From Ferrovaceae bacterium (lineage in GTDB: Bacteria > Pseudomonadota > Gammaproteobacteria > Burkholderiales > Ferrovaceae): a stretch of DNA of 64,000 nt. Shown here one piece after another: positions 4,638-57,767 of this stretch. The notes below the pieces were generated by a model. That model made no database searches, had not been told where the DNA came from, and saw nothing but the letters and a program-made list of their open reading frames with translations. The position numbers and the translations under genes were made by a program. Positions within the stretch are counted from its first letter, which is position 1; every line of letters begins with the position of its first letter. The stretch lies in the NCBI GenBank assembly GCA_027311025.1, contig DAICZS010000005.1, positions 7,784 to 71,783 of the forward strand. The letters run 5' to 3'.

Positions 4638-5881
4638 AGACGATAACCAACGATTACGATCCACAGTCCATGACTGTGGAACAGGCACGAGCGGTGATCT
4701 CCCGCCACCTCAAACCGGTGGACAGCACCATGCGTGTGCCCGTACGCTCCGCCCTGAACCGCTTTCTCGCAGAAGATGTGCTTTCTCCCATCGACGTTCC
4801 AGCGCATGTCAATGCAGCCATGGATGGCTATGCCGTTCGTTTTGCCGAACTGGCTGCGGTTGGCGAAACGGCGCTCACCATCAGCGCCACGGTCCTTGCC
4901 GGTGATGCCCCGCCGCTACCGCTGGCACCCGGTCAGGCGGTACGCGTCATGACCGGTGCCGCAATTCCAGATAACGCCGACACAGTAGTGATGCAGGAGC
5001 AAACCCGACGGGAGGCAGATCGCGTATGGATTCAGCCAGGCCAGCACAATGGGCAGCATGTGCGTCAGGCAGGAGAAGACCTGCATAGGGGCGCTACCGC
5101 GTTGCACCGGGGAAAACGGCTGCGTGCCGCCGAGTTGGGGCTGATTGCCTCGCTGGGCATTGGAGAAGTCAGCGTATTCCGTCCGTTGCGCGTGGCTTTC
5201 TTTTCAACGGGAGACGAACTTGCTTCCATCGGCCAGCCCCTGGCTGAAGGGCAGATCTATGACAGCAATCGTTACACCCTCCATGGCATGCTCACCGCGC
5301 TGGGATTTGATTGTTTTGATCTGGGCGTGGTCCGCGACCATCCAGTGGCCATCGAAAACGCATTCGAGGAAGCCTCGAGGATGGCCGACGTAGTCATCAC
5401 CAGTGGAGGCGTTTCAGTGGGTGAAGCGGATTTCATCAAGCCCTTGCTGGCCCGGATGGGCGAAGTGGTGTTCTGGAAAATCGCCATGAAACCTGGTCGT
5501 CCACTGGCCTACGGGCATTTGGGCCCCTGTCATTTCTTTGGACTGCCGGGCAACCCCGTGGCAGTCATGGTGACCTTTTACGCCTTCGTGCGCGACGCCT
5601 TGCTAACCCTGGCGGGCGCCAACCCCCTTCCCATCTCGCCCCGATGGCTCGTGCGCACCACCACGCCGCTCAAAAAGGCGCCCGGTCGCACCGAATTTCA
5701 ACGCGGTATCGTCAGCCAAAACGCCCAGGGCGAATGGACGGTACGCTCCACCGGAAATCAGGGATCGGGTATTCTGCGATCCATGACTGAAGCCAACTGT
5801 TTTATCGTGCTTCCCCAGGACAGAGGGTCTGTGGAAGCGGGAGACGACGTTGAGATCCAATTGTTTGAAGGGTTGGTCTGA
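4634..5881 (+). CDS. moeA: molybdopterin molybdenumtransferase
   Basis: 415 aa. MoeA-type motifs [17 protein letters not shown] and [13 protein letters not shown] overlap with mobA. Confidence 0.9.
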
Positions 5882-5885
5882 TGCC

Positions 5886-6629
5886 ATGACGCGTCTGCAC
5901 GATTTACCGCTCCGCAATCTTCAGTTCTACGCCACGGCACCCTACCCGTGCAGCTATCTGCCCGGGCTCGACGCGCGCTCCCAGGTGGTGACCCCAGGCT
6001 ACCTGATCGACCAGCCGCTCTACAGTGCGCTGGTGGATTCTGGCTTTCGGCGTAGCGGCGCATTCACCTATCGCCCGCATTGCGACCATTGCAATGCTTG
6101 CGTTCCAGTACGCGTGGACGTCAATGCATTCCAGCCCAATCGCTCCCAGCGCCGGGCCTGGAACCGTCATGGTCACCTCACGGCGCAACAGCTGCCACTG
6201 CGCTTTAGCGCAGAGCATTACGCGCTCTACACCCGCTATCAACTGTCACGCCACCTGGAACGGGACATCGACCAGGACAGCCAGGAGCAGTACATCCACT
6301 TCCTGTTGCAATCCACCATTCCCAGCCATCTGGTGGAGTTTCGCGAGGCAGGTGTCCTGCGCATGGTCAGCATCATCGACGAACTGCAGCAAGGACTCTC
6401 TTCAGTCTATACTTTTTATGAGCCCGATCTGCCCAAGGCAAGCCTCGGAACCTACAACATCCTGTGGCAAATCGAACAGTGCAAAAGCCGCGGCCTGCCG
6501 TGGCTGTATCTGGGTTACTGGATCCGCCACAGTCAAAAAATGGCTTACAAAATCCATTTTCAGCCGCTGCAGGGCCTCGTCAGCTCACATTGGGCGCCAC
6601 TGCCCCTTCCTGAAGTGGAGAACAGCTGA
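5886..6629 (+). CDS. bpt: arginyl/leucyl-tRNA--protein transferase (Bpt/Ate family, N-degron pathway)
   Basis: CSYLPG, GFRRSG and [16 protein letters not shown] motifs with an acyltransferase-like C-terminal half. ATG 5886 preferred (ORF opens at 5850). Confidence 0.8.
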
Positions 6630-7639: not shown

Positions 7640-7869
7640 GCACTGCAGTAGCGCTGCCCACCCTCTCCAATCGCACCCAAGTGGCACTGATCCGGGAAGC
7701 GGAATGCATCGGCTGTTTTCGTTGCATCAAGGCCTGTCCTGAAAATGCAATCCTGGGCGCGTCGCGCTGGATGCACACCGTGCTGCACGATCTGTGCACC
7801 GGCTGTGAAAGCTGCCTGGCTCCATGCCCCGTGGATTGTATCGACCTCATCCCCGCAGCGCCGCTATGA
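7636..7869 (+). CDS. small 2x[4Fe-4S] ferredoxin, RnfB/RsxB C-terminal-module-like
   Basis: 77 aa. Two CxxCxxCxxxCP motifs ([24 protein letters not shown]). ATGA overlaps with pyrD upstream and nth downstream. Confidence 0.8.
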
Positions 7870-36846: not shown

Positions 36847-36944
36847 AGGATCGGAACGGGTATCAATGACGCTTTGGGTTTTTGACAATTGCCTGATGGA
36901 TACTATACTTGAAGCAAATCGGCCGGGACAACGCTGGAAGCACC

Positions 36945-38945
36945 ATGCACCTCAACAAGAACAAATTGATCGGTTTTCTGTTGCTGGCGATACTGTCCCA
37001 GAATTCCTTTGCCGTGACGGATGCCGAAGTCTTTTCTTATGCGGCCGCGAATTATCCCAGCCTTTTCACCGGGGCAGCCACCAGTGGACAATTTCAGCAA
37101 TACAGCTACCAATACTACCCTGCCACCGGTAATTATATCGCCGTAGACACCACCGGCACGGTCTATATCCTCGGCCCGGTGGCCACTGATGGCGCGATCA
37201 CTGCAGTTGGTCCTGTCACCGCATTTGCGGCCGCCATCAACTCCTGGCAATCTAACGGCGGAAGTTACCTGCTGAAGCATGCAGGGGTGTACACGTACTT
37301 CGAAGAACGAGGAGGGGCCTCGGGATATTGGCCAGGTCAGTCCATCCAGACCTGGAGTCAATATGATTCCGTGGTCGGAAGCACGGTGGCGCAGGAAGTC
37401 TCACTGCAACTCGACAAGTTAAAGGCAATGGGAGTCAATACCCTCACCATTGACCTACGCACCGCTGATCCAACCGCCACAGGCAATTTCACGCCTCCTG
37501 ACTGCAATGAACCTCCTGTGCTCGGACTCCAGTTTCCCCAACCTACGGCCACCGAACTTGCAAACTTGCCCCTGCTCTTTGATGCTGCGCAGAGCAAAGG
37601 CATGAAAATCTGGCTGCGTTTGGTCAATTCCCATATGGAGCAGTCGCCCCCAACGAACATCCAGACCTGGCTGACAGCCATCCTGGGCGCCATTGGACAA
37701 AAGCCGGCGCTTGATCTGGTGATGTTTGATGGAACCACCTATCTCGTCACCAATGCCAACGGCACGCAAAGTTGTGGCATTCCGGCAGAACCGCCCTTAT
37801 GGTTGGGCCCAACCTCCATTCCTGCGACTTACGTCCAGTGGGCCATTGGATACGCGATGTCCCTGGGCATTCCCGCACAAAAACTATCCGCTGAAGCCGT
37901 TGTGGGTGACTTCTTTCTGGACAGCCAGCCGCCGTCCGGATCAACGGCCACGGACAGCCACCTCTGGTCACCGATTGCAGTCGAGAAAACCATTTTCGAC
38001 AACCTGGGCATTCCCGCAAGTCAACGCACTTACGCCTTGTCCTTCTATGAACACAGAAAATGCTCGGACGCCCAGTCGCTGCCGTGTACAGACACCAATC
38101 CACATGATTGGGCAGACCAAACCTTGCAGAATGTCACCAATGTCGTAGGGTCTGGCCCACGAATCGTCGCCACAGAAATGGGCGATGAAACCCCAGTAGA
38201 CCAGACGAACTGGAACACGCAGCATGCAATGGAAAGCATCGTCTTCCTGCTGCATAAATACGGCATCGATGGCGGCGCATTCTGGCGCTGGACCAGTTTT
38301 TACGACACCGAAGACAAAGACACGACGCTGGCCTCACCGATCAAGCAACGCGGCGTGACGTTTACCTACAATCCCGTACAGAAAGAAATCCTGGACATGG
38401 GGGGGTTTCATGTTTCGCCCATTCCAAACGGCTCGTTTGAGGGTGCCGCAATCGGTGGCGTTCCAGAGGGCTGGACGGTTTCAGGCAGCGGTACGGCTTA
38501 CCAGTATTTATTGACGCAGGAAGGAGCCACACAGCCTGAAGTACCATCCCGGGGGGTGTATGCCATGCGAATCATTACCGGTCCCGCAAGCGCCACCATC
38601 AGTGCCAGCAGCGTCAAGATTCCAGTAACTGCAGCAACCGCCTACACGACGACGGCAAATTTGCGATTTGCCTGGGCGGGTGATCCAGCCGCAGGCACGG
38701 GCCCTTCACTTTCAAGGCCACAGGTATTTGTGTCAGTGCTCTATTATCAGGCAAGCGGTTCTGCCTCGGCCCTGCGTGCGCAGGACTATTACGCGTTCTA
38801 CCAGGAAGACAGCACGACAGGGTTTGGCACATTCCCCATTCAATACACCACGCCAGGCGATGCGGCCTACGTCGTGATCCAGTTTGGTGCATCACGCAAC
38901 GGGCTGGCCACTCCGATCACGCTGGATGTGGATAATGTCCGCTGA
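36945..38945 (+). CDS. hypothetical secreted protein; possible clan GH-A-like glycosidase barrel plus C-terminal CBM-like domain
   Basis: 666 aa from ATG 36945. Signal peptide MHLNKNKLIGFLLLAILSQNSFA. Motifs GVNTLTIDL, NEP, VATEMGDE and FWRW, with a C-terminal NGSFEG...GW beta-sandwich-like module. The function call is weak. Confidence 0.4.
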   Translation: MHLNKNKLIGFLLLAILSQNSFAVTDAEVFSYAAANYPSLFTGAATSGQFQQYSYQYYPATGNYIAVDTTGTVYILGPVATDGAITAVGPVTAFAAAINSWQSNGGSYLLKHAGVYTYFEERGGASGYWPGQSIQTWSQYDSVVGSTVAQEVSLQLDKLKAMGVNTLTIDLRTADPTATGNFTPPDCNEPPVLGLQFPQPTATELANLPLLFDAAQSKGMKIWLRLVNSHMEQSPPTNIQTWLTAILGAIGQKPALDLVMFDGTTYLVTNANGTQSCGIPAEPPLWLGPTSIPATYVQWAIGYAMSLGIPAQKLSAEAVVGDFFLDSQPPSGSTATDSHLWSPIAVEKTIFDNLGIPASQRTYALSFYEHRKCSDAQSLPCTDTNPHDWADQTLQNVTNVVGSGPRIVATEMGDETPVDQTNWNTQHAMESIVFLLHKYGIDGGAFWRWTSFYDTEDKDTTLASPIKQRGVTFTYNPVQKEILDMGGFHVSPIPNGSFEGAAIGGVPEGWTVSGSGTAYQYLLTQEGATQPEVPSRGVYAMRIITGPASATISASSVKIPVTAATAYTTTANLRFAWAGDPAAGTGPSLSRPQVFVSVLYYQASGSASALRAQDYYAFYQEDSTTGFGTFPIQYTTPGDAAYVVIQFGASRNGLATPITLDVDNVR

Positions 38946-38980: not shown

Positions 38981-39160
38981 TCACCCATTTCGATGCGGAA
39001 ATCGTCGCAAGCCCGCGCGCAGAAACTGCAACTGTTTGTTGAAGTTACGGCAGCCGTCGCACACCATCAGGTGAATTCGCAGGCTGGTCTGCCGCCACAA
39101 GCCAAGCTTTTTATCCATGCCCTGCGACATCAACGCGGTAGCCTGTTTACAATTCAGCAT
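38981..39160 (-). CDS. small zinc-binding (ZAS, zf-HC2) anti-sigma factor, no TM segment
   Basis: 59 aa from ATG 39160: MLNCKQATALMS...RIHLMVCDGCRNFNKQ. Shows C-x25-H-x3-C-x2-C. Overlaps the sigma-gene stop by 14 nt (ATG 39175 is the alternative). Confidence 0.75.
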   Translation of the reverse strand: MLNCKQATALMSQGMDKKLGLWRQTSLRIHLMVCDGCRNFNKQLQFLRAGLRRFPHRNG

Positions 39161-39719
39161 CCCGGTCCCCCGCATTAAACCACCGATCATCAAGACAAAG
39201 CCTGAGCGCCATGCGCGCCCGATGCAGTACAACCCAACAATTAGTCGGGCTGATGGCCAATTCCTTACATATTTCTTCGGTATCCAGATCCAGCATCTCG
39301 CGCATCATGAAAACCCGTGCGGTATTTTCGGGTAGGCGCGTCAGACAGATTTCAAATATTTTCCAGAACTGTTGACTGGAAAAACTGCTCTCGGGGTCAC
39401 CCCAAGCCGACGGGCGCGTATCCGCATTCCAGTGATCCCTCTCGTCAAAAAGGTCGTCGTAGGCATTTTCAGGAATTTCTTCCAGGGCTGCCCCTGTACT
39501 GCTAAAGCGGGCGCGTTCACGAATGATGTCAACGATCTTGTTCTTGAGAATGGCAAATACCCAGGTCTTGAGCTGTGCACGATTACCGAATGACTGCTTG
39601 CCAATCAGAACTGCCGCCATGGTCTCCTGCACCGCATCTTCTGCTGAACTTTCGTCACGCAACTGCAACCATGCAAATTTCAGCATGTCACTTCTGAATG
39701 AGATCAGTTCATTTTCCAT
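39147..39719 (-). CDS. ECF-type RNA polymerase sigma-70 factor
   Basis: 190 aa. Region 2 (DAVQETMAAVL...WVFAILKNKIVDIIR) and region 4.2 HTH (EEICKELAISPTNCWVVLHRARMALR). Confidence 0.88.
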   Translation of the reverse strand: MENELISFRSDMLKFAWLQLRDESSAEDAVQETMAAVLIGKQSFGNRAQLKTWVFAILKNKIVDIIRERARFSSTGAALEEIPENAYDDLFDERDHWNADTRPSAWGDPESSFSSQQFWKIFEICLTRLPENTARVFMMREMLDLDTEEICKELAISPTNCWVVLHRARMALRLCLDDRWFNAGDRDAEL

Positions 39720-39825
39720 GGGCGAAGCATAACAATTTTTGAAATCCCTGTAAGGATTCCGCAGGCATTGCGACTAACAAGCGGGGACACATTCTCCGTT
39801 TCAATCAATCCAACCTGAGGAGTTT

Positions 39826-40092
39826 ATGATGAACAATCGTCGCATGATTGCTGCCGCAATGGGAAGTTTGCTGTTACTTGGCCTGGCTAGTAGCAGTGCC
39901 ATGGCGGGTGACAAGCCAGAAATGGAAAAATGCTTTGGTATCGCCAAGGCGGGCAAGAATGACTGCTCCAGCAACAAGAGCGCCCATTCTTGCGCAGGCC
40001 AGGCCACTAAAGACAGGGATCCCATGGATTTTGTCGCAGTGCCCAAGGGAACCTGCGAACGAATCGCTGACGGTCAGTTGAAGAAAATGTAA
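39826..40092 (+). CDS. bufA: DUF2282-family Cys-containing secreted peptide = bufferin-type RiPP precursor (BufA1/GigP-like)
   Basis: 88 aa. GAGGAG SD. Sec signal [27 protein letters not shown]|G. Core motifs [20 protein letters not shown] and VPKGTCE are typical of DUF2282. Confidence 0.85.
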
Positions 40093-40934
40093 TGGAAAAG
40101 CCCGCAACGCACTCCCTGCCATGCGCAGCCGGTATTGGGTTGCGGGCACCTCATTACCTTGAGGTGTTGAATGAACGCCCCCATCTGGGCTGGGTGGAAG
40201 TCCACAGCGAAAACTTTTTCGGTGGTGGCGCACCCTTGAATACCCTGCGCCAGGTGCGTAACCATTATCCGGTCAGTCTGCATGGCGTGGGCATGGGACT
40301 GGCCTCCACCCGGGCTCTGGACCAGACGCATCTGTCGGATTTACGTCGACTGTGTGACATGATCCAACCTGCTGCCGTCTCAGAGCATCTCTGCTGGAAT
40401 GCGTCAGGAGGCTACGTAATCAACGATCTGCTGCCATTTCCTTATACCGAAGAGGCCCTGGCGCATGTGGTGTCTCGCATCGATCACGTTCAGGAAAGAC
40501 TGGACCGCCAGCTTCTGGTGGAGAACCTGTCATCCTATTTATCGTTTAGCCATAGTGAAATGACTGAAGGCGAGTTTATGTCCGAACTGGCAGACCGCAC
40601 AGGATGCGGCATCCTGCTTGACGTCGAAAACCTGTATGTGAACACGTGCAATCTGGGCGTTGACGCCAAAGCCTTTATCGCATCCATCCCGGTTGACGCA
40701 GTAAAGGAATTTCATCTGGCAGGATACAGCGAAAGGAACGGTTGCCTGGTGGACACGCACGACCATCCCGTCAGTACGGAAGTGTGGAGGCTATATGAGT
40801 ACGCGTTACTGCAAATTGGCCCGCGCCCAACCCTGATCGAATGGGACAGTGACATTCCTGCCCTGGGTGTCTTGATGGGTGAGGCGGCAGAGGCGCAGCG
40901 CAGACTGGAGCAGCATGATGTCCAGGCTGCATGA
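40092..40934 (+). CDS. bufB: DUF692 / MNIO (multinuclear non-heme iron oxidase, MbnB-like) RiPP-modifying enzyme
   Basis: 280 aa. TIM-barrel DUF692 blocks GIGLRAPHY, VEVHSENF, SLHGVG, VSEHL, LLVENLS, LLDVENLYVN, EFHLAGY, VDTHDHPV and LIEWD. Start overlaps the bufA stop (TAATG). Confidence 0.88.
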   Translation: MEKPATHSLPCAAGIGLRAPHYLEVLNERPHLGWVEVHSENFFGGGAPLNTLRQVRNHYPVSLHGVGMGLASTRALDQTHLSDLRRLCDMIQPAAVSEHLCWNASGGYVINDLLPFPYTEEALAHVVSRIDHVQERLDRQLLVENLSSYLSFSHSEMTEGEFMSELADRTGCGILLDVENLYVNTCNLGVDAKAFIASIPVDAVKEFHLAGYSERNGCLVDTHDHPVSTEVWRLYEYALLQIGPRPTLIEWDSDIPALGVLMGEAAEAQRRLEQHDVQAA

Positions 40935-41700
40935 CACTCTGTCAGATTTCACTTACTGCATCATCACCGGACTGGGGCTTTCAGATGAAACCACGGCCGT
41001 ATGCCCCAATTATCGCATCGAAACTGCGCTCGATATTTACCGCAATAATTATCGCGGCAACCTCCATGACGCGCTGAGCCATGCCTACCCCGTCATTGAA
41101 CAACTGGTAGGCAAGGACTATTTTCGGTACCTGTCGCGGCATTACGTGGATCGACACCCTTCTGTCAGTGGCAACCTTCATCAGTATGGCGCGGAAATGG
41201 CAGAATTTATTGCCGGCTTTGAATCTGCAAAAGGGCTGGCTTACCTGCCCGACGTTGCCGAACTGGAGTGGGCTTGCCATTGCGCCTATTTTGCGGAAGA
41301 TGCAGGCAAACTCGATGTCATGGCGCTCGCGAAAATCCCACAAGCGCAGTATGCCGACCTGATCCTGAATACGCATCCATCATGCCAGATGGTGCGTTCC
41401 GATTACCCGATTGCGTCCATATGGAATGCACATCAACCTGATGCCGATGGTGACTTCCACGTCACCCTGGATGGCATTCCATCCCATACCCTGGTCAGCC
41501 GGAAGGATCATGCAGTGAAAATCAGTGCGCTCTCTGAACCAGAAGCCACATGGCTGGCGTGGATCCGGTCAGGCGCCTCCCTGGGTAAGTCAACCGATGC
41601 GGCAGTAAATCAATGCGCTGCCTTTGACCTCCATGGCCTGCTGTTGAAATTGATCGATGACGGCGTTTTGATTCACTTTACTTTGAGGAGTACCCCATGA
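40915..41700 (+). CDS. bufC: DUF2063-family protein (MNIO partner / precursor-recognition subunit, BufC-like)
   Basis: About 261 aa from ATG 40915. DUF2063 blocks DIYRNNYRGNL, AYPVIEQLVG..YF and YLPDVAELEWA. 20-nt overlap with bufB. Confidence 0.82.
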   Translation: MMSRLHDTLSDFTYCIITGLGLSDETTAVCPNYRIETALDIYRNNYRGNLHDALSHAYPVIEQLVGKDYFRYLSRHYVDRHPSVSGNLHQYGAEMAEFIAGFESAKGLAYLPDVAELEWACHCAYFAEDAGKLDVMALAKIPQAQYADLILNTHPSCQMVRSDYPIASIWNAHQPDADGDFHVTLDGIPSHTLVSRKDHAVKISALSEPEATWLAWIRSGASLGKSTDAAVNQCAAFDLHGLLLKLIDDGVLIHFTLRSTP

Positions 41701-42179
41701 AAGCACTCTCATGCATGGCCAGGACTTATTACAGGGCATCACACTGGCCGGAATACCTGTCCCCCGTCATGGATCTTGGGCTAAGACTCTATCTTGCCCA
41801 GGTATTCTTCAAATCCGGATTGACAAAGATTTCCAATTGGCAGGGCACGCTATACCTGTTCAATGATGTATATCAGGTGCCGCTTCTGCCGCCGGAGGCC
41901 GCGGCCACCCTGGCGACCAGCGCAGAACTGGGGTTGCCCATATTACTGGTACTGGGTTTGTTGGGCAGATTATCCGCGGCAGGACTATTCATTCTCAATG
42001 CGGTTGCCGTCATTTCATATGCTGATTTAAGCGAGGGAGGCATCAACCAGCATATTTCATGGGGACTGCTACTCGCCGTCCTGCTCACACTCAACCACAA
42101 AAGCTGGTCAATGGATGCCTGGCTGGAAAAGCACCTGCAGGCAGCACCCCGAAAAAAATGCGTTGGTCGAGATGCCTAA
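41697..42179 (+). CDS. bufD: DoxX-family integral membrane protein (BufD-like)
   Basis: 160 aa with about 4 TM helices. DoxX-type RLYLAQVFFKSGLTK start. ATGA overlap with bufC. Confidence 0.8.
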   Translation: MKALSCMARTYYRASHWPEYLSPVMDLGLRLYLAQVFFKSGLTKISNWQGTLYLFNDVYQVPLLPPEAAATLATSAELGLPILLVLGLLGRLSAAGLFILNAVAVISYADLSEGGINQHISWGLLLAVLLTLNHKSWSMDAWLEKHLQAAPRKKCVGRDA

Positions 42180-49254: not shown

Positions 49255-51459
49255 CTATCGCTTTCTGGACTTTTTGGTGGCGCCGCCAGGCTGGGCAACG
49301 GATTGTGGCACGAAGTCGATCTTGTTGGTCTCCATGTCCACCCTAACCAGTTGCACGGCAATGCGATCGCCCAGGCGATAGCGCTGCCCGGTGCGTTCGC
49401 CCAGCAATTGATGGCGAGTCGCGTCGAACTGAAAATAATCGCTGCCCAGCTCGGAGATGTGCACCAGTCCTTCCACATAAACCTCATCCAATGCCACAAA
49501 CAACCCGAAGCCCGTCACGGAACTGACCGTTCCGTTGAACACGTTGCCCACCTTGTCTTTCATGAAGAAGCACTTGAGCCAGGCCTCCACGTCACGCGTG
49601 GCTTCGTCAGCACGGCGTTCCGTCATGGAACAGTGCACGCCGATGGCCTTCCAGTCTCCCGGAGCATAGGTTTCCTGGGCCAGAACGGCACGAATGGACC
49701 GATGTACCAGCAAATCAGGGTAGCGACGGATGGGTGAAGTAAAGTGTGCGTAGGCAGCGTAAGCCAATCCAAAGTGCCCCACGTTTTCAGGGCTGTATTG
49801 GGCTTGTTGCAAGGAACGCAGCAACACCGTCTCCAGCAGGCGCTGGTCCGGGCGGCCCTGGATTTTGTGAATCAACCTGGCGTAGTCCGCGGCCTGCGGT
49901 TCGTCGCCACCTGACAACTGCAATCCCAACTCGCCCAGAAACTCCCGCACAATCTCCAGGCGTTCAGGAGCAGGCGCAGGGTGGATGCGATAGAGTGTGG
50001 TGTGGTTATGCTCTTGCAGGAAGTGAGCAGCGCTCACGTTGGCCGCCAACATGCATTCTTCGATCAGACGATGAGCATCATTGCGCTCCACTGGCAGGAT
50101 GGTTTCAATCTTGCCACGGTCGTCAAACACCATGCGGGTTTCGTCACTGGCAAAATCGATGGCACCGCGGGCTGCACGCGCTTTCAAAAAGACGCGAAAC
50201 AGGGCTTCGAGCTGCTGCAGGTGGGGCACAATCGCGCGACGCGAGCTGTCGGCGCGTTCAGGATGTTCGAGGATGGCAGCCACTTCCGTATAGGTCAGGC
50301 GCGCATGGGAATGCATCACAGCAGGGTAGAACTTGTATTTCCGGATTTCGCCCTGTTCCGATATGTGCATGTCGCAGACCATGCACAAGCGGTCCACTGC
50401 CGGATTGAGCGAGCAGAGCCCATTGCTCAATGCCTCAGGCAGCATGGGAATGACCCGGCGCGGAAAGTAAACGCTGTTGCCGCGTTCATAGGCCGTCTGG
50501 TCCAACGCGTCCTTGGGCCGGACATAATGGGATACATCGGCAATCGCCACCACCAGCCGGTGTCCTCCACCAGGCAACGGTTCGGCATAAACCGCATCAT
50601 CAAAATCCTTGGCCGTTTCACCATCAATGGTCACCAGCGGCATCTGGCGCAGGTCCTCGCGACCCTTGAGGTCTGACTTGCGCACCGCATCAGGCAGCTT
50701 GTCAGCCAACGCCTGGGCTGCTGGGGAAAACTCATGGGGCAGCTCATGCTTGCGCAGGGCGATCTCCACTTCCATACCCGGATCGGCGTAGTTACCTACG
50801 ATTTCCACGACCTTGGCAATGGGTTCAGCCTGGCGACTGGGTTGCTTCATGAGCTCGACCATGACCACCTGGCCGGGTTTTGCTCCTCCTTCCTGTCCTG
50901 GTGCCACCAGAATGTCCTGGCTGATGCGCTTGTTCTCGGCTACGGCAAACAGGACGCCCTGCTCCTGGAACAAGCGCGCTACGAGGCGCGTGTTGACGTG
51001 CTCCAGAATCTCCACGATTGATCCTTCGGGTCGACCACGCTGGTCCACACCGATGGTACGCACCATGACCCTGTCGCCATGCAGCACCCGTTGCATTTCG
51101 CGAGCGCCGAGGAAAATGTCGCTGCCTCCATCCTCGCGAATGGCAAACCCAAAGCCGTCAGGGTGGCCCTCCACGCGCGCCTTGATGAGATCGAGTTTGG
51201 CGGGAAGGCAGAGCGCATTTTTGCGATTGCGCATGATCTGGCCTTCGCGTTCCATGGCACGCAGGCGCCGCGAAAACAGTTCGCGCTCGCCGGCTGTGAT
51301 CGTCAGGAGACGTTCCAGTTGTTCCACCGTGAGGGGTACGCCTTCTTGCTCCAGCAACTGCAAAATGAATTCGCGGCTGGGTAAAGGTTCGGGATATTGG
51401 GCCTTTTCACGCTCCAGAAACGGGTCCTGAAGCCTCAAAGGTATTTTTTTGGTTGACAA
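49255..51459 (-). CDS. rnr: ribonuclease R
   Basis: 734 aa. RNB catalytic domain (DGETAKDFDDA) and a C-terminal S1 domain with a basic tail. The start codon read from the sequence is TTG (ttg tca acc aaa aaa). Confidence 0.93.
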   Translation of the reverse strand: MSTKKIPLRLQDPFLEREKAQYPEPLPSREFILQLLEQEGVPLTVEQLERLLTITAGERELFSRRLRAMEREGQIMRNRKNALCLPAKLDLIKARVEGHPDGFGFAIREDGGSDIFLGAREMQRVLHGDRVMVRTIGVDQRGRPEGSIVEILEHVNTRLVARLFQEQGVLFAVAENKRISQDILVAPGQEGGAKPGQVVMVELMKQPSRQAEPIAKVVEIVGNYADPGMEVEIALRKHELPHEFSPAAQALADKLPDAVRKSDLKGREDLRQMPLVTIDGETAKDFDDAVYAEPLPGGGHRLVVAIADVSHYVRPKDALDQTAYERGNSVYFPRRVIPMLPEALSNGLCSLNPAVDRLCMVCDMHISEQGEIRKYKFYPAVMHSHARLTYTEVAAILEHPERADSSRRAIVPHLQQLEALFRVFLKARAARGAIDFASDETRMVFDDRGKIETILPVERNDAHRLIEECMLAANVSAAHFLQEHNHTTLYRIHPAPAPERLEIVREFLGELGLQLSGGDEPQAADYARLIHKIQGRPDQRLLETVLLRSLQQAQYSPENVGHFGLAYAAYAHFTSPIRRYPDLLVHRSIRAVLAQETYAPGDWKAIGVHCSMTERRADEATRDVEAWLKCFFMKDKVGNVFNGTVSSVTGFGLFVALDEVYVEGLVHISELGSDYFQFDATRHQLLGERTGQRYRLGDRIAVQLVRVDMETNKIDFVPQSVAQPGGATKKSRKR

Positions 51460-51540
51460 AATAAGGGGATCCTTTAAAATTCTGAGATTCGAAGTTCTCG
51501 ATTGTACTGATCACTGATCAGTCGGTCTTGTAAGTTTCGT

Positions 51541-51627
51541 GCCGAGATGGCGGAATTGGTAGACGCACCAGGTTCAGGTCCTGGCGGTGGCAACACTGTG
51601 GAGGTTCGAGTCCTCTTCTCGGCACCA
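51541..51627 (+). tRNA. tRNA-Leu (anticodon CAG)
   Basis: GCCGAGATGGCGGAATTGGTAGACGCACCAGGTTCAGGTCCTGGCGGTGGCAACACTGTGGAGGTTCGAGTCCTCTTCTCGGCACCA. Long variable arm. Anticodon loop TTCAGGT. Confidence 0.93.
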
Positions 51628-51778: not shown

Positions 51779-52975
51779 TCAGACGTAGGTCAAGCCGTGT
51801 TGTGCCAGTCCCACGAGGCCAATATGGTCCTGGTTGATCTGGGTGGTCGCAGCAAGCGCCAGCAGCCCTGCCTGGCTGTAGGTGCCGTTATCCAGCAACC
51901 CCTTGAAAGTGGCCAGGTTGGTGGCGTCAATAGGCGAGCCCACGACGTTCAACCAAACTGCCTGTACGAAGGAAGCGTTGTCATGCAGCGTACTCACGGC
52001 CCCTGTATTGATGGCCAATTGGGCCACTTGGGCCATGGTCATGCCTGAATCGAACAGCTGCAACCCAATGCCAACATAGGACGGGTTCTTGGTAATGGAA
52101 GCTGCGCCAAAGGCCGCACCCAGTATTTCTGCAGTTTGTCCGCCGGACTGCGTGGTTCCCGTATCAAAGGCGAGGGAGACATCAGAAAACTTGATGCGCT
52201 GAATATTGACCAGTGCGTCCGTACCCTGGGCCCCTGTGGTGTCTTGCACGGTCAATCCGCTGGTTGTGTGGGTAATGGTGAAGTTGGCGGACTTGCCGTT
52301 GTAGATCACCGTGTTGATCCCACCGCTGCCGCCCGTAAAACTGTCGTTGCCCGGACTGCTGGTAAAGGTGTTGTTGCCTGGTTTTCCTGTAACGTTGAAT
52401 GCCGAGGCAACGGTCAGGTTAAAGGTATCCGTGACGCTCAGGTTGAGTGAATCCGTCATCTTGATGCTGATGCTGTAGGTGCCAGTACCCGGCGGGGTGC
52501 CGCTGAGCGTGTCAGCAGCCGGATCAAAAGTCAGCCACGAAGGCAGCGCCGCACCGCTGGACAGGGTGGCGTTGTAGCTGGGGGTGGCGCCCACATTGGG
52601 ATCGCTGAAGGTACTGGCGGGAACCACCAGTTTGAAGGGCATCCCGTAGACTGCAGACTGGTCGGCAATGAGGGTTGCAACCGAAGGGGGCACCGTGCCG
52701 AAATACGTGTTGAGGTTGACGGTCACGGTATCGCTATTGAACTTGAGATACTGAATATCCTTGAGTGTCAGGTTGTACGGGCTGCTGGCACCCGACACCG
52801 AATCCACGGTCACTGACTTGTCAGGGTTTTGAATGATGGTGAAGTTGGACTGCAGCCCCTGCAGAAAATCCACCGTATTGTTGGTGAACGCGGCGTTCCC
52901 GATAATGGTGTAGGTCAACCCTCCTGGAGGAATGTTGGCCAGATTTTGGGCACCGGTGAGTTGAAGTGTCGGCAT
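51779..52975 (-). CDS. hypothetical Thr/Ser/Asn/Gly-rich repeat protein (cadherin-like Ig module, Ca-binding-repeat-like modules, DUF4214-like C-terminus), no signal peptide
   Basis: 398 aa. ATG after GAGGAC. Modules: SGAALPSWLTFDPAADTLSGTPPGTGTYSISI (putative Ig / dystroglycan-type), GNDSFTGGSGGINTVIY...GTDALVNIQRIKFSD, and FVQAVWLNVVGSPIDATNLATFKGLLDNG. Confidence 0.6.
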   Translation of the reverse strand: MPTLQLTGAQNLANIPPGGLTYTIIGNAAFTNNTVDFLQGLQSNFTIIQNPDKSVTVDSVSGASSPYNLTLKDIQYLKFNSDTVTVNLNTYFGTVPPSVATLIADQSAVYGMPFKLVVPASTFSDPNVGATPSYNATLSSGAALPSWLTFDPAADTLSGTPPGTGTYSISIKMTDSLNLSVTDTFNLTVASAFNVTGKPGNNTFTSSPGNDSFTGGSGGINTVIYNGKSANFTITHTTSGLTVQDTTGAQGTDALVNIQRIKFSDVSLAFDTGTTQSGGQTAEILGAAFGAASITKNPSYVGIGLQLFDSGMTMAQVAQLAINTGAVSTLHDNASFVQAVWLNVVGSPIDATNLATFKGLLDNGTYSQAGLLALAATTQINQDHIGLVGLAQHGLTYV

Positions 52976-53009
52976 GGTATTGTCCTCATGAAATCAGAAG
53001 AAATGCGCT

Positions 53010-54824
53010 TCAGAGCGCAAGGTATTGCGTCAGGTGTTCCAGGAATCTGTCGGGTTGTTCATACCCGATGACCCTGCTGTTGGGGACTTCCCTGCCCGCA
53101 GCATCAAAAAAAAGGATCCCTGGCGGGCCAAACAAGCTGAATCTCTTCATCAGCGCGCGATCGTCTGCTGTGTTGGCCGTGACATCCACCTGCACGAGCG
53201 TGATGCCACGCAAATGGCTTGCAACCGCTGGATTGCTGAACGTGAAACGCTCCATCTCCTTGCACGACACGCACCAGTCCGCATAAAAATCCAGCATGAC
53301 GGGGTTCCGGGTCGTGGACAGGACCTGGTCCAGCTGGGAGATCGACGAGATGCGCTGAAAGGAAACGGCCTTTTCGGTCGGGGCGTTGCCAGTGGCCAAG
53401 GACTTGAACCCTTCCAGGGGCTGCAGCACATCAACGCCTCCGACGGCAGCACCCGCCAATTCAAAAATGCCGACGATGAAAGCCAGAATGCCCAGCGATC
53501 TCGAAAACCGTCGTGCCACCGAAACCTGGTCGGGGGGAGTATCGAAAATTCGCAGGAATACCGCGCACAAGATCGCGAAAGCGCCCCACATTGCAAGGAC
53601 AGCTGGTGCCGGCAGAATGGGTTGAACCATCCAGAGTGCGACCGCCATCAACATCAAGCCAAAAGTGTGCTTGACCGCGACCATCCAGGCCCCGGCGCGG
53701 GGCAAAAGCCGCCCTGCCGACAGCCCGATCAGCAACAGAGGTACGCTCATGCCCATGGCCATGGAAAAAAGGGCCAACCCGCCCAATACCACATCGTGGG
53801 TTTGGCTGATGTAAATCAGCGCGCCGGCAAGTGGGCCGGCCACACAGGGCCCCACGATCAGGGCAGAAAATCCGCCCATCACGAACACGCTAAGCGTTCG
53901 CCCACCCTGCAAGCGATTGCTGATCTGGTTCAGGCGCCCTTGAAATGCACTGGGCATCTGCAACTGGTACACGTCAAACAGGGACAGGGACATGGCAAAC
54001 AGCAATGAGGCAAACAACAGCAACACCCAGGGCTTTTGCAAGGCACCCGCAAGCCCCTCACCAGCAAGCCCCGCAGCGATGCCGAACAGGGTGTATACCA
54101 GCGCCATGCCCAGGCAATAGGAAAGCGCCAGCGTAAAGCTGCGCGCACGCGTCACCTCACGCTCGCCCACCACGATGGCAGCCAGAATGGGGACCATCGG
54201 GAGCACACAGGGGGTAAAGGACAACAAAAGCCCAAAGATCATGAAGGCAAAACCAATGGTCCACAGGCTGCCGCTGGCGAAAATCTGATGCACCGTGGAG
54301 GGTTGTTCCTGAACGGAAGCGCTGTTCTGCGCGACAGGCTGGAATACAGCCCCCTCCTCTGCCAGTGCGGTCAATGCGCCAGACTGCCCGGGGCTCAAGC
54401 GAAACCGTCGTTCCACCGGCGGATAACACAATCCTGCTTCAGCGCAACCCTGGTACGACACGGCCATGAGCGCGGATTCGCCCTGCAGTTCCACAGGGAC
54501 AGCCACATCGAGTTTCTGGTGGTAGATCTCTACATCCTGATCGAAATTGTCGTCGTGAACGCGGAACCCCTTGGGCAACACAATATTGCCCAGGGTCGCC
54601 CCGCCGCCCACGGCAGCCAGGTGCACGCGACCCCGATATAGCTTGTAGCCTGGAGCAATGTCCCAGTGAAGCAACAGCCGATGCTCTGGCGTATAACTGG
54701 CGCTCAGTCGAAAAGCCGATTCCGGGCTGAGGAATTCGTCGGAAGCACTGGCAGAATGACCAAAGAGCAGGGCCAGCATCGCACCCAGCAAGGCAATTTG
54801 GATGAGTGAATGGAGTCTATTCAT
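53010..54824 (-). CDS. dsbD: thiol:disulfide interchange protein DsbD (transmembrane electron conduit)
   Basis: ATG 54824 (MNRLHSLIQIALLGAMLALLFGHSASA). Three Cys pairs: nDsbD GCAEAGLCYPP, TM FTPCVLPM, and C-terminal thioredoxin DWCVSCKE. Confidence 0.9.
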   Translation of the reverse strand: MNRLHSLIQIALLGAMLALLFGHSASASDEFLSPESAFRLSASYTPEHRLLLHWDIAPGYKLYRGRVHLAAVGGGATLGNIVLPKGFRVHDDNFDQDVEIYHQKLDVAVPVELQGESALMAVSYQGCAEAGLCYPPVERRFRLSPGQSGALTALAEEGAVFQPVAQNSASVQEQPSTVHQIFASGSLWTIGFAFMIFGLLLSFTPCVLPMVPILAAIVVGEREVTRARSFTLALSYCLGMALVYTLFGIAAGLAGEGLAGALQKPWVLLLFASLLFAMSLSLFDVYQLQMPSAFQGRLNQISNRLQGGRTLSVFVMGGFSALIVGPCVAGPLAGALIYISQTHDVVLGGLALFSMAMGMSVPLLLIGLSAGRLLPRAGAWMVAVKHTFGLMLMAVALWMVQPILPAPAVLAMWGAFAILCAVFLRIFDTPPDQVSVARRFSRSLGILAFIVGIFELAGAAVGGVDVLQPLEGFKSLATGNAPTEKAVSFQRISSISQLDQVLSTTRNPVMLDFYADWCVSCKEMERFTFSNPAVASHLRGITLVQVDVTANTADDRALMKRFSLFGPPGILFFDAAGREVPNSRVIGYEQPDRFLEHLTQYLAL

Positions 54825-54831
54825 GAGGGTG

Positions 54832-55740
54832 TCAGGCTGTGGCTGGTGTAACGCTGGTGGCGTTGCGAAAGGTGTTTCCATGGTGATCGATGGCAAAATA
54901 GGGAAAGCCCGTTTCGTTCAAAAAGGCCAGGCCATCCTTCTCCTTGAGCATGGCGATGGTGGTGCAGCTACCTGCGGCAATCGCAAGCGGAGCCAGCACG
55001 CTCACCGAACGCCAGTGAGAGACCGGCATCCCCGTTTTGGGATTGAGGATGTGGCAATAGCGACGCCCATCGCGTTCGAAGAAACGCTCATAATCCCCAC
55101 TGGTAGCCAGGGCGCCGCCCGACATGGGAATGGTGGCAATGAGCTGGCGCTCCCTGGGATGCTGTATTCCGAAAGACCAGGCGCTGCTGTCGGGCTTGGG
55201 GCCGATCACACGGATGTCTCCTCCCAGATTGACGTAGCCATGGGCAATGCCGGCATCGATGAGGATCTGGGCGGCACGGTCAGCGGCGTATTCCTTGCCA
55301 AACCCACCAAAATCGATTTCCATGCCCGTCCTGGACAGCCTGACGTTGTCGCTCTTCAAATCCACATGGGACCAGCCGATTTTGTCCAGCAGCGGGCGCA
55401 ATTCATTCTGATCTGGAACGCGCGGTGTATTGAAGTTCCAGGCGCGGCGCAGGATGCCTGAGGTGATGTCGAACAATCCTGCACTCGTGCGGTACAAGGT
55501 ATCGGCATACCGAAGCAAATGCAGCGTTTCCTCGTCACAGGCCACCCATCCCAATCCTGCGGCAGCGTTGATTTTCGACACCACACTGTCCTTCAGGTAC
55601 CTTGAATACTTCGTCTCGATGCGCAGTACTTCGTCGATGGCGTGTTGCGCCTTCAGTGCGGCTTCTGCTTCCGTGGCGTCAGCCAGTGCGATTTCACACG
55701 CACAGGCCATGGCTTTGAATTGGCGGACGGTAACGTTCAT
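54832..55740 (-). CDS. apbE: FAD:protein FMN transferase (ApbE family)
   Basis: ATG 55740, 1 nt after the DUF3570 stop. ApbE blocks FGGFGKEYAADRA, NLGGDIRVIG and LATSGDYERFF..DGRRYCHILNPKTGMP. No N-terminal hydrophobic signal. Confidence 0.88.
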   Translation of the reverse strand: MNVTVRQFKAMACACEIALADATEAEAALKAQHAIDEVLRIETKYSRYLKDSVVSKINAAAGLGWVACDEETLHLLRYADTLYRTSAGLFDITSGILRRAWNFNTPRVPDQNELRPLLDKIGWSHVDLKSDNVRLSRTGMEIDFGGFGKEYAADRAAQILIDAGIAHGYVNLGGDIRVIGPKPDSSAWSFGIQHPRERQLIATIPMSGGALATSGDYERFFERDGRRYCHILNPKTGMPVSHWRSVSVLAPLAIAAGSCTTIAMLKEKDGLAFLNETGFPYFAIDHHGNTFRNATSVTPATA

Positions 55741-55741
55741 G

Positions 55742-56923
55742 TCAGAAAAGACAGGACAATCCAAACTGGATGCTGCGCGCACGGAATGGATCCAGCGGAA
55801 CGCTGTTGCCCATCACGCTCCAGTTATTACGCTGTTCATACTGCTCGTACTTGATGTCGGCCAGCCAGTCTGAACCAATCTTTTTGGAGACCTTGAACCC
55901 CAGCGTGATGGCGCCGAACGAAGAGAGTCGTTGATCCAGCGAATAGTAGGTGGAGCCATAACTTGGAAACGTGGGATAAGGTCGCGCCGTAGGGTCTGGT
56001 TCAAGGTAGAACCAGGCGGCTGACTGCGAGTAGAGACGAACTTCAGGAGTCAGCATCCATCCCGATGCGGTGGGCTGATCGTAGGATGCGTTCAGCGTAT
56101 GCGCGCGGATGTCGTAGGTGTCACTGTAATACCGATAAGACAGATGCCCGGTTCCCTCCGTGGCATGGAAGAAGTGGTTCCAGAGCAGCATGGCGGTGGT
56201 ATGGTTGCGTGATCTGGGCCGATTGTCGAAGATCTTGTAGGGGTCTGAAAAATAGCCGTCACCCATGGAATGCCCCAAATCGAACTGGGCAATGTCCTGG
56301 GGAGTGAAGACCTGGGTCACACCCGCGAGCATGTCCAGAACATGCTTGCGCTCCCCTATCACGATCTTGTTGACTGGGTTGATTTCATCATTGGACACCG
56401 CAGTGCCGAAATTGAAGGTGGTGTTCTTGTCTTCCGTGGAAAGCGTGCCCTGTGCTGAAAGCCCTTGGGAAATGTAGTCCGACTCCTTGGAATATGAGGC
56501 CCCGACGGTAGCTGTGCCTTGTGAAAAATAGCGTGTCAGTGAGACATCCTCGGCGCGACGCAAATCGTGCATTTTTGGAAACTTGCCGTTGCTGTCGTAG
56601 GTGTAATAGCGCGGCGAAGCGCCTGAAATGGAGTCCGTGGTGTAGGTTCCCGTCACCGCCCATTCCCCTGCAAGGGGCACCATCACCATGGCCGAAGTGG
56701 CGCCCACATGGATTCTGTTTTCGCCCGGTTGGCTGTCCTGATAGTCCAGGTAACGCAGGCTCATCAGACCACGATCAGGGGCAATCTCCGCCACAGCTGG
56801 CTTGAGTGTCATCAAACTCATGGCAGCGAGCAAAATCGCCGGGCCAGAAGCTGAAGCGTTACTTGCCGATGCCCTGGCAGGTTTCAGGAGGTGGCGAACC
56901 TGCTTCAATTTCCTCAGTTGCAT
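55742..56923 (-). CDS. DUF3570-family protein, probable outer-membrane beta-barrel, candidate ApbE substrate
   Basis: 393 aa. Signal-like ...GPAILLAAMSLMTLKPAVA|E, DSISGAS motif at residues 97-103, alternating beta-strand pattern, and a C-terminal ...IQFGLSCLF with terminal Phe. Confidence 0.75.
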   Translation of the reverse strand: MQLRKLKQVRHLLKPARASASNASASGPAILLAAMSLMTLKPAVAEIAPDRGLMSLRYLDYQDSQPGENRIHVGATSAMVMVPLAGEWAVTGTYTTDSISGASPRYYTYDSNGKFPKMHDLRRAEDVSLTRYFSQGTATVGASYSKESDYISQGLSAQGTLSTEDKNTTFNFGTAVSNDEINPVNKIVIGERKHVLDMLAGVTQVFTPQDIAQFDLGHSMGDGYFSDPYKIFDNRPRSRNHTTAMLLWNHFFHATEGTGHLSYRYYSDTYDIRAHTLNASYDQPTASGWMLTPEVRLYSQSAAWFYLEPDPTARPYPTFPSYGSTYYSLDQRLSSFGAITLGFKVSKKIGSDWLADIKYEQYEQRNNWSVMGNSVPLDPFRARSIQFGLSCLF

Positions 56924-57153
56924 CCGCAGCCTCCGCCACCCACGCCAGAGCCGCCCGAGGCGCCTTCCTTGCTTGAATAAATATGTTCTGTAAAGGCGCT
57001 ATCCAGGGGATCCTGGCCAAACATCATTTCAGGACGCGCCAGATCCCCCTTTTCCCAGGGCTGTACCGGTGCCGTCGTGGCACAGCCCGATAACAGGGCC
57101 AGGAAAACGAAACGCACGCCGCCTCTTCGTACATGAACCCAGTGCGCGTTCAA
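56914..57153 (-). CDS. DUF4266-family small lipoprotein
   Basis: 79 aa. TTG start in a TTGA overlap with the tlpA stop (GTG 57117 is the alternative). Lipobox LLSGC. C-terminal tail GASGGSGVGGGGCGCN. Confidence 0.7.
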   Translation of the reverse strand: MNAHWVHVRRGGVRFVFLALLSGCATTAPVQPWEKGDLARPEMMFGQDPLDSAFTEHIYSSKEGASGGSGVGGGGCGCN

Positions 57154-57656
57154 TTGCGTTGCTCCAGGGCCGAAGTGATGATGCGTTCGAGATCACCACG
57201 ATCCTTGTTGTTAAAGCCCATGTGCTCTGAAATGATCTTTCCGTCACGCCCGATGAGAACACTGGTGGGCATGCCCTTCACCTGATATTTGCGAGGCGTA
57301 TCGCCGTTGGGATCAAAAGCCACGATGAATGAAGCGGGCGTTGTCGAAAGGAACCGACGGCCATCTTCCGACTTCATGTCGAGGTTGATGCCGATCACCT
57401 GGAGCCCTTGCTTTCCGTATTTCGCCTGCATTTCATTCATCCAGGGAAAGGATTGCTTGCACGGTCCACACCAGGAAGCCCAGAAATCCAGATAAACCAG
57501 CTTGCCGCGGTATTGGTCCAGATTGACGGCGCCATCTGCTCCGGGTAGCGCAAATTCGGGGGCTGTTCCAGCATTTCCTGCCGAAAATGCTGTCAGGGGG
57601 AAAAACATCAGGCTATTTATCGTTAATACTATGAATAATAATGATATTTTTTTCAT
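57150..57656 (-). CDS. TlpA/ResA-type periplasmic thiol:disulfide oxidoreductase (thioredoxin fold)
   Basis: ATG 57656 (MKKISLLFIVLTINSLMFFPLTAFSA signal). Active site WASWCGPCKQSFP. Confidence 0.85.
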   Translation of the reverse strand: MKKISLLFIVLTINSLMFFPLTAFSAGNAGTAPEFALPGADGAVNLDQYRGKLVYLDFWASWCGPCKQSFPWMNEMQAKYGKQGLQVIGINLDMKSEDGRRFLSTTPASFIVAFDPNGDTPRKYQVKGMPTSVLIGRDGKIISEHMGFNNKDRGDLERIITSALEQRN

Positions 57657-57739
57657 TTTTTCTTTCACCTCTAGCCAGTGGGCGTGTCGTGACACCCCCT
57701 AAGGAAATGCTTCTGTGGATATGTATGGGATTTTTTCCC

Positions 57740-57767
57740 ATTATATCCAGTTGCATCAACGCGTCAA
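57740..57767 (-). promoter_or_regulatory. near-consensus sigma70 promoter of the tlpA cluster (TTGACG-16-TATAAT)
   Basis: Minus strand reads ttgacg cgttgatgcaactgga tataat. The -35 is at 57762-57767 and the -10 at 57740-57745. Confidence 0.6.

Follow-up and report, generated by a model that had tools for sequence, protein, structure and literature searches.

What do a thioredoxin-type thiol pathway and a covalent-flavin pathway do together in one transcription unit, and how far out into the cell envelope do they lead? The question is raised by a six-gene cluster of a Ferrovaceae bacterium (Burkholderiales; NCBI GenBank assembly GCA_027311025.1, contig DAICZS010000005.1), located at 51779–57656 on the minus strand of the window, i.e., of the whole stretch of 64,000 nucleotides analysed (contig positions 7,784 to 71,783, forward strand; coordinates given without a locus number are those of the window). 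The genes are, in the direction of transcription, tlpA-like, DUF4266, DUF3570, apbE, dsbD and a sixth gene for a protein with immunoglobulin-like (Ig) and RTX-like modules. By its gene content the locus is a member of a published DsbD/thioredoxin-like/DUF4266/DUF3570/ApbE system, and its core is not new. Taken as a whole, it is read here as an operon of that system which would relay electrons from thiols to flavins and on to the cell surface; this favoured reading is given about an even chance. Three features are new as computational inferences: the flavin site of the outer-membrane barrel on its surface side, the absence of a leader from the flavin transferase, and a conserved partner family, not described before, with a flavinylation-type motif.

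The system was described by Meheust, Huang, Rivera-Lugo, Banfield and Light (eLife 2021, PMC8238504). This is the comparative-genomics study to which an earlier note on this DNA had referred, and its content is as stated there, unsolved function included: DUF3570 was reported as a new ApbE substrate; clusters with DsbD contained DUF3570 (227), DUF4266 (221) and a thioredoxin-like protein (183); 316 further clusters had no local DsbD; the iron transporter VIT1 was present in 25 clusters. For C. luteolum it was shown experimentally that the cognate ApbE flavinylates two SGAS motifs of DUF3570; the flavinylated protein accumulated in the insoluble pellet. DsbD was drawn as the electron source of a hybrid thiol/flavin chain (Fig. 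4D of PMC8238504), and the function of the DUF3570 clusters was left undetermined. The earlier note's suggestion of a new kind of envelope redox chain had thus been anticipated as regards the DsbD-fed thiol/flavin idea. The main text of PMC8238504, as distinct from the supplementary tables, mentions neither a barrel fold in the outer membrane nor a motif-bearing Ig/RTX/DUF4214 partner, and does not comment on a cluster ApbE without signal peptide. The DUF3570 system is not treated in the 2024 follow-up by the same group (PMC11334425) and not mentioned in the 2025 review of ApbE (PMC12052999); a literature search gave no later paper combining flavinylation and DsbD.

Judged from the sequence, the six genes are one operon. 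All six open reading frames (ORFs) listed in the earlier note were found on the minus strand, and the recomputed junctions were exactly those it had claimed: from tlpA to the sixth gene, a 4-nucleotide (nt) overlap TTGA, an overlap of 10 nt and gaps of 1, 7 and 34 nt. Its strong promoter was identified as a sigma-70-type site with 11 of 12 consensus positions behind the purA terminator (Table 1); the assignment to one operon is based on the tight junctions and on this single promoter. Three promoter-like sites were observed across the region vs 3.7 expected from shuffled sequence (no excess), so that the case for the promoter rests on the quality of the match and on its position. The mechanical ORF of the tlpA-like gene begins with GTG at 57695, upstream of the likely ATG.

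All family labels of the earlier note were borne out by Pfam and NCBIfam profile searches, among them DUF3570 (PF12094, 1.9e-55) and DUF4266 (PF14086, 5.5e-24), for which it had recommended such searches. ApbE, DUF3570 with the motif, DUF4266 with CXC, a thioredoxin-like protein and DsbD were all present; the five families and the DsbD-fed thiol/flavin logic are the same as in the DsbD-type clusters of PMC8238504. Co-occurrence was determined by a DUF3570-anchored search (one genome per species; best 79 loci kept; partners counted on the same strand within 7 kb). DUF4266 was found in 75 of the 79 loci, TlpA in 66, ApbE in 62, a relative of the N-terminal module of the sixth protein in 36 and DsbD in 31. 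The families therefore co-occur widely, and the possibility raised in the earlier note that they are not found together outside this genome is refuted. In loci of Duganella, Janthinobacterium and Massilia (Oxalobacteraceae) the cluster ends at DsbD, and the gene for the N-terminal module is absent; in one oxalobacteraceal locus (L045, 11863–12615) DsbD is followed by a 250-residue protein that has a signal peptide and ends in an aromatic residue.

The thiol proteins came out as the earlier note had them. The tlpA-like product (Pfam Redoxin, 2.1e-21; AhpC-TSA, 2e-20; NCBIfam ResA and TlpA matches below the equivalog cutoffs) has a signal peptide and a WCGPC motif at residues 62–66 (CGPC at 63–66, with Cys63 and Cys66), and is predicted to be a TlpA/ResA-like periplasmic thiol:disulfide oxidoreductase. 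DsbD (Pfam DsbD_N, DsbD_TM (PF02683, 4.7e-90) and Thioredoxin_7; NCBIfam DsbD, 577 bits vs cutoff 330) is full-length, with alpha, transmembrane and gamma domains and six redox cysteines in three pairs (Cys127/133, Cys206/327 and Cys518/521). The DUF4266 protein, correctly described as a small lipoprotein with a terminal C-G-C, has the lipobox LLSGC with Ala at +2, a mature part of ca. 55 residues, and a glycine-rich tail that ends in GGGGCGCN (C-terminus GCGCN). The end GGCGCN was found in 80 of 85 DUF4266 homologues, and the last 24 residues are nearly invariant across two phyla (EH.Y.SKE.ASGG.GVGGGGCGCN). The lipoprotein is probably anchored in the outer membrane. In the DUF4266 annotation of sister genomes a gap was noticed: the gene is uncalled in the public gene sets of three sister metagenome-assembled genomes (MAGs; L114–L116, about 5820–6047), likely on account of the TTG start and the overlaps with both neighbours, and automated neighbourhood counts will therefore under-report the family.

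For the DUF3570 protein, guessed in the earlier note to be an outer-membrane barrel, an AlphaFold2 model was built from an input of 33 homologues (mean predicted local distance difference test (pLDDT) 83.4; 16 strands, residues 53–392). Foldseek search with the model gave as strong matches outer-membrane barrels exclusively (PgaA, CymA, FadL, PelB, BcsC); the template modelling (TM) scores were only about 0.5 and the identities 8–12%, i.e., the similarity is that of barrels in general. An N-terminal signal peptide, an even number of antiparallel strands, alternating loops and a C-terminal aromatic residue (Phe) were all present, the strands and loops by prediction, and a 16-strand outer-membrane beta-barrel is confidently predicted from the model. 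The flavinylation-type motif attributed to this protein was located as DSISGAS at residues 97–103, at the end of strand 3 and the start of loop L2; the motif D-x-[VI]-[ST]-G-A-[ST] was kept in all DUF3570 loci examined. Loops after odd-numbered strands are long and rich in insertions and deletions. Long loops of this kind are the usual mark of surface loops in barrels with both termini in the periplasm, which places the L2 motif, and an additional L1 motif of some homologues, on the same, surface-facing side. On the model, the flavin site is accordingly predicted where a loop facing the cell surface begins. The second motif was observed in 6 of the 33 aligned homologues (one annotated Chlorobiales), within an insertion of loop L1; this insertion is absent here, and the protein has the L2 site as its single motif, whereas the tested C. 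luteolum DUF3570 has two. Tandem DUF3570 duplicates accompanied by two DUF4266 genes were found in four Chlorobiaceae loci (L011, L012, L014 and L019). The pairing of two genes with two argues for a one-to-one relation, and DUF4266 and DUF3570 may form a lipoprotein–barrel complex of that stoichiometry, in which the DUF4266 tail (ca. 16 residues) would be long enough to reach into the barrel.

ApbE (Pfam PF02424, 2.8e-77, 260 bits) has 1vrm as the best match among ApbE homologues of the PDB (3.5e-43), and GGD, TSGDYER and H-I-L-N-P are conserved; against the E. coli-type equivalog NF007774 of NCBIfam it reached 116 bits, short of the cutoff of 498. By sequence it is a genuine homologue of flavin mononucleotide (FMN) transferases, but not an E. 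coli-type equivalog. The label of FMN transferase in an extracytosolic cluster thus stood as to the family; with a simple periplasmic step, however, the leaderless state of the enzyme conflicts. Neither signal peptide nor lipobox was found, even in the longest possible ORF, in which the first strand is preceded by 20 non-hydrophobic residues (6 if counted from the likely ATG). A longer start hiding a signal peptide was considered and ruled out, the maximal ORF adding only 14 non-hydrophobic residues. The same was observed for ca. 60 DUF3570-linked ApbEs of Betaproteobacteria and Chlorobiaceae, with only 6–11 residues before the first strand and a typical N-terminus M-x-x-F-R-I / P-F-x-A-M-A-S-x-C-E. 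In these proteins a Cys in the first strand is conserved (A-M-[AG]-[SC]-x-C-E; here C-A-C, ApbE residues 13–15). Most ApbEs are exported lipoproteins acting outside the cytoplasm; a cytosolic ApbE is known from Klebsiella pneumoniae (PMC12052999). According to the literature, the seven-residue motif is sufficient for ApbE, and the C. luteolum DUF3570 was flavinylated though insoluble, so that a folded barrel is not needed. Because the enzyme has no export signal, the simplest view is that FMN is joined to the still unfolded precursor inside the cytoplasm and leaves together with it; modification before export is given somewhat less than an even chance.

The sixth gene, entered in the earlier note as a repeat protein, turned out otherwise: by sequence it is a conserved partner of the cluster with a flavinylation-type motif of its own. 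The protein (Pfam He_PIG, 7.2e-17; no signal peptide, no cysteine; AlphaFold2 mean pLDDT 89.3) is composed of an N-terminal module bearing the motif (N-module), a He_PIG Ig-like domain, an RTX-like beta module and a helical DUF4214-like C-terminal domain. For the N-module, predicted to be all-beta, no Pfam match was obtained even at E ≤ 10 (FMN_bind, PF04205, included), and no NCBIfam match; a Foldseek search with the whole model gave no flavoprotein, a result dominated by the Ig domain and uninformative on the N-module. In an alignment of 24 N-modules, D58, A63 and S64 were the sole invariant columns besides Met1, with S61 nearly invariant; the three correspond to D, A and the acceptor Ser in the motif of ApbE substrates, D-x-x-[S/T]-G-A-[S/T]. 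An independent metagenome search was performed with motif-free patterns of the module (H-A-T-L-Y-N-M-E and T-G-T-A-G-N-D-S-W) and gave 34 loci; VDS[VI]S[GSA]AS was kept wherever the motif region was covered, and in each of the 16 loci for which 2.5 kb or more of upstream sequence was available, DUF3570 and DUF4266 were adjacent (TlpA 13/16, ApbE 12/16). Exhaustive HMMER search of 1.84 billion cluster representatives gave 140 N-module matches at E ≤ 1e-10, the module starting almost always at residues 1–9, which leaves no signal peptide. Among 144 newly listed representatives, 74 have D..SGAS and 39 are variants at the Ser/Gly positions; all 113 keep D-x-x-x-x-A-S, and the acceptor in these motif-bearing sequences is Ser, never Thr (113/113).

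Relatives of the sixth gene recur directly after apbE in many betaproteobacterial loci and after DUF3570 in some; there, too, the N-module precedes Ig-like domains, which vary (He_PIG, Big_5, Big_12), RTX repeats and a helical domain of the DUF4214 type. The N-module is paralogous to the protein's own RTX-like module (residues 195–275; 33% identity, E = 8e-6), which has TGAQ at the equivalent loop; the acceptor Ser is therefore specific to the N-terminal copy. HemolysinCabind is weak in the sixth protein (0.015) and strong in homologues (4.9e-10), and the C-terminal half is common to serralysin-type and NF038122 metalloproteases; this serralysin-like half points to export without a signal peptide. 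A stand-alone N-module protein (P0126), whose gene lies between that of DUF3570 and that of a leaderless ApbE, has the signal peptide of a lipoprotein and supports, by its sequence, an extracytoplasmic location of the module. With the motif conserved and the gene linked to apbE, as for ApbE substrates in general, the sixth protein is probably a second ApbE substrate, the predicted site of the flavin being Ser64. Loci without local apbE showed no co-variation of the motifs: that of DUF3570 is intact, and N-module variants occur with or without apbE. Six of the loci (L010, L024, L030 and L106–L108) are of a compact variant consisting of DUF4266, DUF3570, an N-module protein of ca. 280 residues and TlpA; no apbE was seen in the fetched flanks, the SGAS of DUF3570 is kept, and the N-module motif is SSAS or SAAS. 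In a Chlorobiaceae locus (L038) an 867-residue RTX-like protein with IIVSGAS is encoded between DUF3570 and apbE, which suggests that green sulfur bacteria have a partner analogous to the sixth protein. JDVT-CTERM proteins, which have a Cys motif at the C-terminus, a transmembrane helix bearing DP and a cluster of Arg, have been reported near DUF4266, DUF3570 and TlpA clusters, including those of the genera Duganella, Janthinobacterium and Massilia (Haft 2023); assignment of the sixth protein to this class was rejected (no Cys, no transmembrane tail, no Arg cluster; C-terminus GLAQHGLTYV).

From the gene content and order, the junctions, families, conserved motifs, co-occurrence, predicted folds and leaderless ApbE described above, we infer the following chain, its direction, the locations of its members and the timing of flavin attachment. 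Electrons from cytoplasmic thioredoxin would be carried across the inner membrane by DsbD and received in the periplasm by the CGPC protein TlpA, which would reduce the C-terminal Cys-Gly-Cys of DUF4266. The glycine-rich tail of the latter would then reach an FMN linked by a phosphoester to Ser103 of DUF3570, with the loop either on the surface side or in the lumen. From this flavin, electrons would pass to another FMN, covalently bound at Ser64 of the exported sixth protein, and this second flavin would in turn reduce an external acceptor, e.g., Fe(III), humic material or an oxidant. Both flavins would be attached by the cluster ApbE, most likely in the cytoplasm on unfolded precursors. The potentials of DsbD and TlpA are near −230 to −260 mV and those of Cys-Gly-Cys peptides near −170 mV, and the order is plausible. 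For covalent FMN a potential near −180 mV is quoted (PMC12052999). The most specific form of the scheme, i.e., a cytochrome-free outer-membrane conduit in which covalent flavins are attached in the cytoplasm and exported on the chain, two flavins form a relay at the surface, the DUF4266 tail is threaded into the barrel and the N-module is a new class of ApbE substrate, is considered unlikely to hold in all its parts.

Several observations weigh against the relay. We know of no precedent for a chain modified with FMN passing through Sec. For the sixth protein, which is leaderless, the way out of the cell lacks support: ORF listings and a partial Pfam scan covering the window and eight further loci showed no genes for type I secretion. 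Loop L2 of DUF3570, which would bear the flavin, is of low confidence in the model (pLDDT 57–68) and may lie in the lumen or at the surface. Some N-modules carry Ser, Ala or Arg for the Gly of the motif, a substitution that lowers flavinylation in a tested model protein (literature). Read-through from dsbD to the sixth gene is possibly reduced by the weak hairpin between them (Table 1). With a local DsbD in only 31 and an N-module gene in only 36 of the 79 loci, neither of these is obligatory.

One alternative explanation is that the five-gene core is the whole system and the sixth gene an unrelated adhesin-like neighbour, its DSVSGAS being a structural turn that is never flavinylated. The protein is indeed built of common extracellular modules (He_PIG, RTX-like, DUF4214-like), 43 of the 79 DUF3570 loci lack the N-module gene, the hairpin separates it from dsbD, and SGAS may arise by chance in proteins rich in Ser, Gly and Ala, homologues with SSAS, SAAS and SRAS being known. 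A mere passenger would, however, hardly have the D, A and S of the motif as the only invariant columns of its module; moreover, the motif was recovered by a search that did not contain it, always beside DUF3570 and DUF4266, the relative stands directly after apbE in most loci, and the internal paralogous module is without the acceptor Ser. On this evidence such a passenger is decidedly unlikely. The direction of flow may also be questioned: as in the flavin sulfhydryl oxidases Erv2 and QSOX, electrons might run from thiols via TlpA and the DUF4266 tail to the DUF3570 flavin and on to O2 or an external acceptor, with DsbD serving only for resetting or protection. Yeast Erv2p has a flexible C-terminal Cys-Gly-Cys tail of this kind, which shuttles electrons to its flavin. 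To this may be added that most clusters have no local DsbD (316 vs 227 in PMC8238504; 31 of 79 with DsbD here) and that PMC12052999 mentions oxidase activity for a protein with several covalent FMNs. Such an oxidase is nevertheless very unlikely, since the membrane conduit of the cluster, where one is encoded, is DsbD, known only as an importer of reductant (PMC8238504), characterised CGPC proteins of the TlpA/ResA type act as reductants, and no DsbB-like or quinone-linked oxidant was found among the cluster genes.

A further alternative moves the attachment of flavin to the periplasm, through unconventional export of the leaderless ApbE or through another ApbE that is exported and has its gene at a different place in the genome; the sixth protein would be periplasmic or modified there. 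This would agree with the site of action of most characterised ApbEs (PMC12052999), with the lipoprotein signal peptide of P0126, by which an N-module can function after Sec export, and with the DUF3570 loci that keep the motif without an adjacent apbE and would be served by an ApbE encoded elsewhere. It is somewhat unlikely all the same: ApbE is leaderless in essentially every linked locus in two phyla, that of P0126 included; apbE starts 1 nt after the DUF3570 stop codon; the flavin loops of the folded barrel, being predicted on the surface side, would be beyond the reach of a periplasmic enzyme; and cytosolic ApbE has a precedent (PMC12052999). Finally, DUF3570 might be mainly a channel for a substrate, polymer or metal, the flavin and the thiol proteins gating it, sensing or assisting its assembly, and no electrons being conducted. 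The nearest folds, the 16-strand exporters and substrate channels PgaA, PelB, BcsC, CymA and FadL, and the VIT1 transporter of 25 clusters (PMC8238504) would fit such a role, which is given very little credence, the TM-scores and identities being generic, the flavinylation motif an invariant feature of DUF3570, and the obligatory partners redox proteins.

The thiol-to-flavin relay may be set beside known systems. With the MtrCAB conduits of Shewanella and Geobacter it would share the idea of a redox cofactor in or at the mouth of a barrel that is fed from the periplasm and has an extracellular partner outside; here, however, haems and cytochromes are absent, the cofactors would be a dithiol and covalent FMN, and electrons would come from thioredoxin/DsbD, not from the quinone pool. 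No homology to MtrCAB was found with Pfam profiles and Foldseek, and the likeness is one of analogy only. In Erv2p and QSOX a flexible terminal Cys-Gly-Cys lies beside the flavin centre, and a like arrangement is proposed here for the tail of DUF4266 and the FMN of DUF3570; their fold is different, their flavin adenine dinucleotide is bound non-covalently, the flow is opposite, and the two elements are here on separate proteins. Known ApbE substrates are FMN_bind (NqrC/RnfG), NqrB/RnfD, DUF2271, DUF3570, Flavodoxin_4 and FMN reductase. The N-module resembles them in having D-x-x-[ST]-G-A-[ST] in an exposed loop and its gene beside apbE, and differs in being, by prediction, all-beta, derived from an RTX-like module, without Pfam match and with Ser as the only acceptor; its flavinylation is a prediction. 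The substrate of the cytosolic Klebsiella ApbE, which serves the maturation of fumarate reductase, stays in the cytoplasm, whereas the substrates predicted here are bound for the outer membrane or beyond. A cytoplasmic modification preceding type I secretion is known in the HlyC-dependent acylation of HlyA.

Table 1: Features of the cluster and its immediate surroundings, in the order of transcription of the cluster (window coordinates; signals are given in the direction of their strand).
Feature	Position	Strand	Remarks
purA intrinsic terminator	57843–57816	−	12-bp stem, 7 GC pairs, then T-run; 5' boundary of operon
Promoter, sigma-70-type	57767–57740	−	TTGACG-16-TATAAT; between purA terminator and tlpA
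tlpA-like	57150–57656	−	168 aa; likely ATG start with AGGTGA ribosome-binding site
DUF4266 gene	56914–57153	−	79 aa; TTG start overlapping tlpA stop codon (TTGA)
DUF3570 gene	55742–56923	−	393 aa
DUF3570 flavinylation motif DSISGAS	56615–56635	−	residues 97–103, predicted acceptor Ser103; strand 3 end/loop L2 start
apbE	54832–55740	−	302 aa
dsbD	53010–54824	−	604 aa
Weak hairpin	53019–53004	−	6-bp stem, 4 GC pairs, interrupted T-run; overlaps dsbD stop codon; possible partial terminator
Sixth gene	51779–52975	−	398 aa
N-terminal all-beta module of sixth protein	52691–52975	−	ca. 95 residues; AlphaFold2 fold
Candidate second flavinylation site DSVSGAS	52784–52804	−	residues 58–64, predicted acceptor Ser64; exposed beta-hairpin loop in model
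tRNA-Leu(CAG)	51541–51627	+	downstream of cluster, between cluster and rnr

The cluster is flanked by housekeeping genes, hflX, hflK, hflC, hisZ and purA on one side and rnr, rlmB, rpsF, priB, rpsR, rplI and dnaB on the other. The identical flanking order with the cluster inserted was found in three sister MAGs, with 91% identity in the sixth protein. Among relatives that carry a taxonomic label, betaproteobacterial MAGs, Methylovorus, Novimethylophilus and Gallionellaceae come nearest. The tRNA-Leu(CAG) gene has a promoter-like site of its own (TTGACA-16-TAAAAT, 51453–51480, 11/12 match). Elsewhere in the window, an 88-residue secreted precursor with four cysteines (39826–40092, plus strand) is followed by an MbnB/TglH/ChrH (DUF692) enzyme (40092–40934), a DUF2063 protein (40879–41700) and a 160-residue ORF (41697–42179), with an extracytoplasmic function (ECF) sigma factor upstream on the minus strand (39147–39719); the region 39147–42179 looks like an operon for a ribosomally synthesised and post-translationally modified peptide (RiPP), which we take to be of the bufferin type. 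An ORF of 678 residues (36909–38945) has a probable signal peptide and no Pfam match at E ≤ 1e-5.

By the count of 2021 there are more than 500 DUF3570 clusters, and what they do is recognised as a question still to be answered. The surface-side flavin site, the leaderless ApbE and the partner with a second motif together lead to specific predictions, namely a chain of carriers, Ser64 as a new substrate site and modification before export. If these do not hold, the locus would still serve genetic work as a clean and compact representative of the published system. If they do, a thiol/flavin route across the Gram-negative outer membrane would stand beside the multihaem conduits, and the set of ApbE substrates would be larger. 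Among freshwater Betaproteobacteria and green sulfur bacteria the system is common, and for these organisms surface redox reactions with iron, humics and oxidants would be of ecological relevance.

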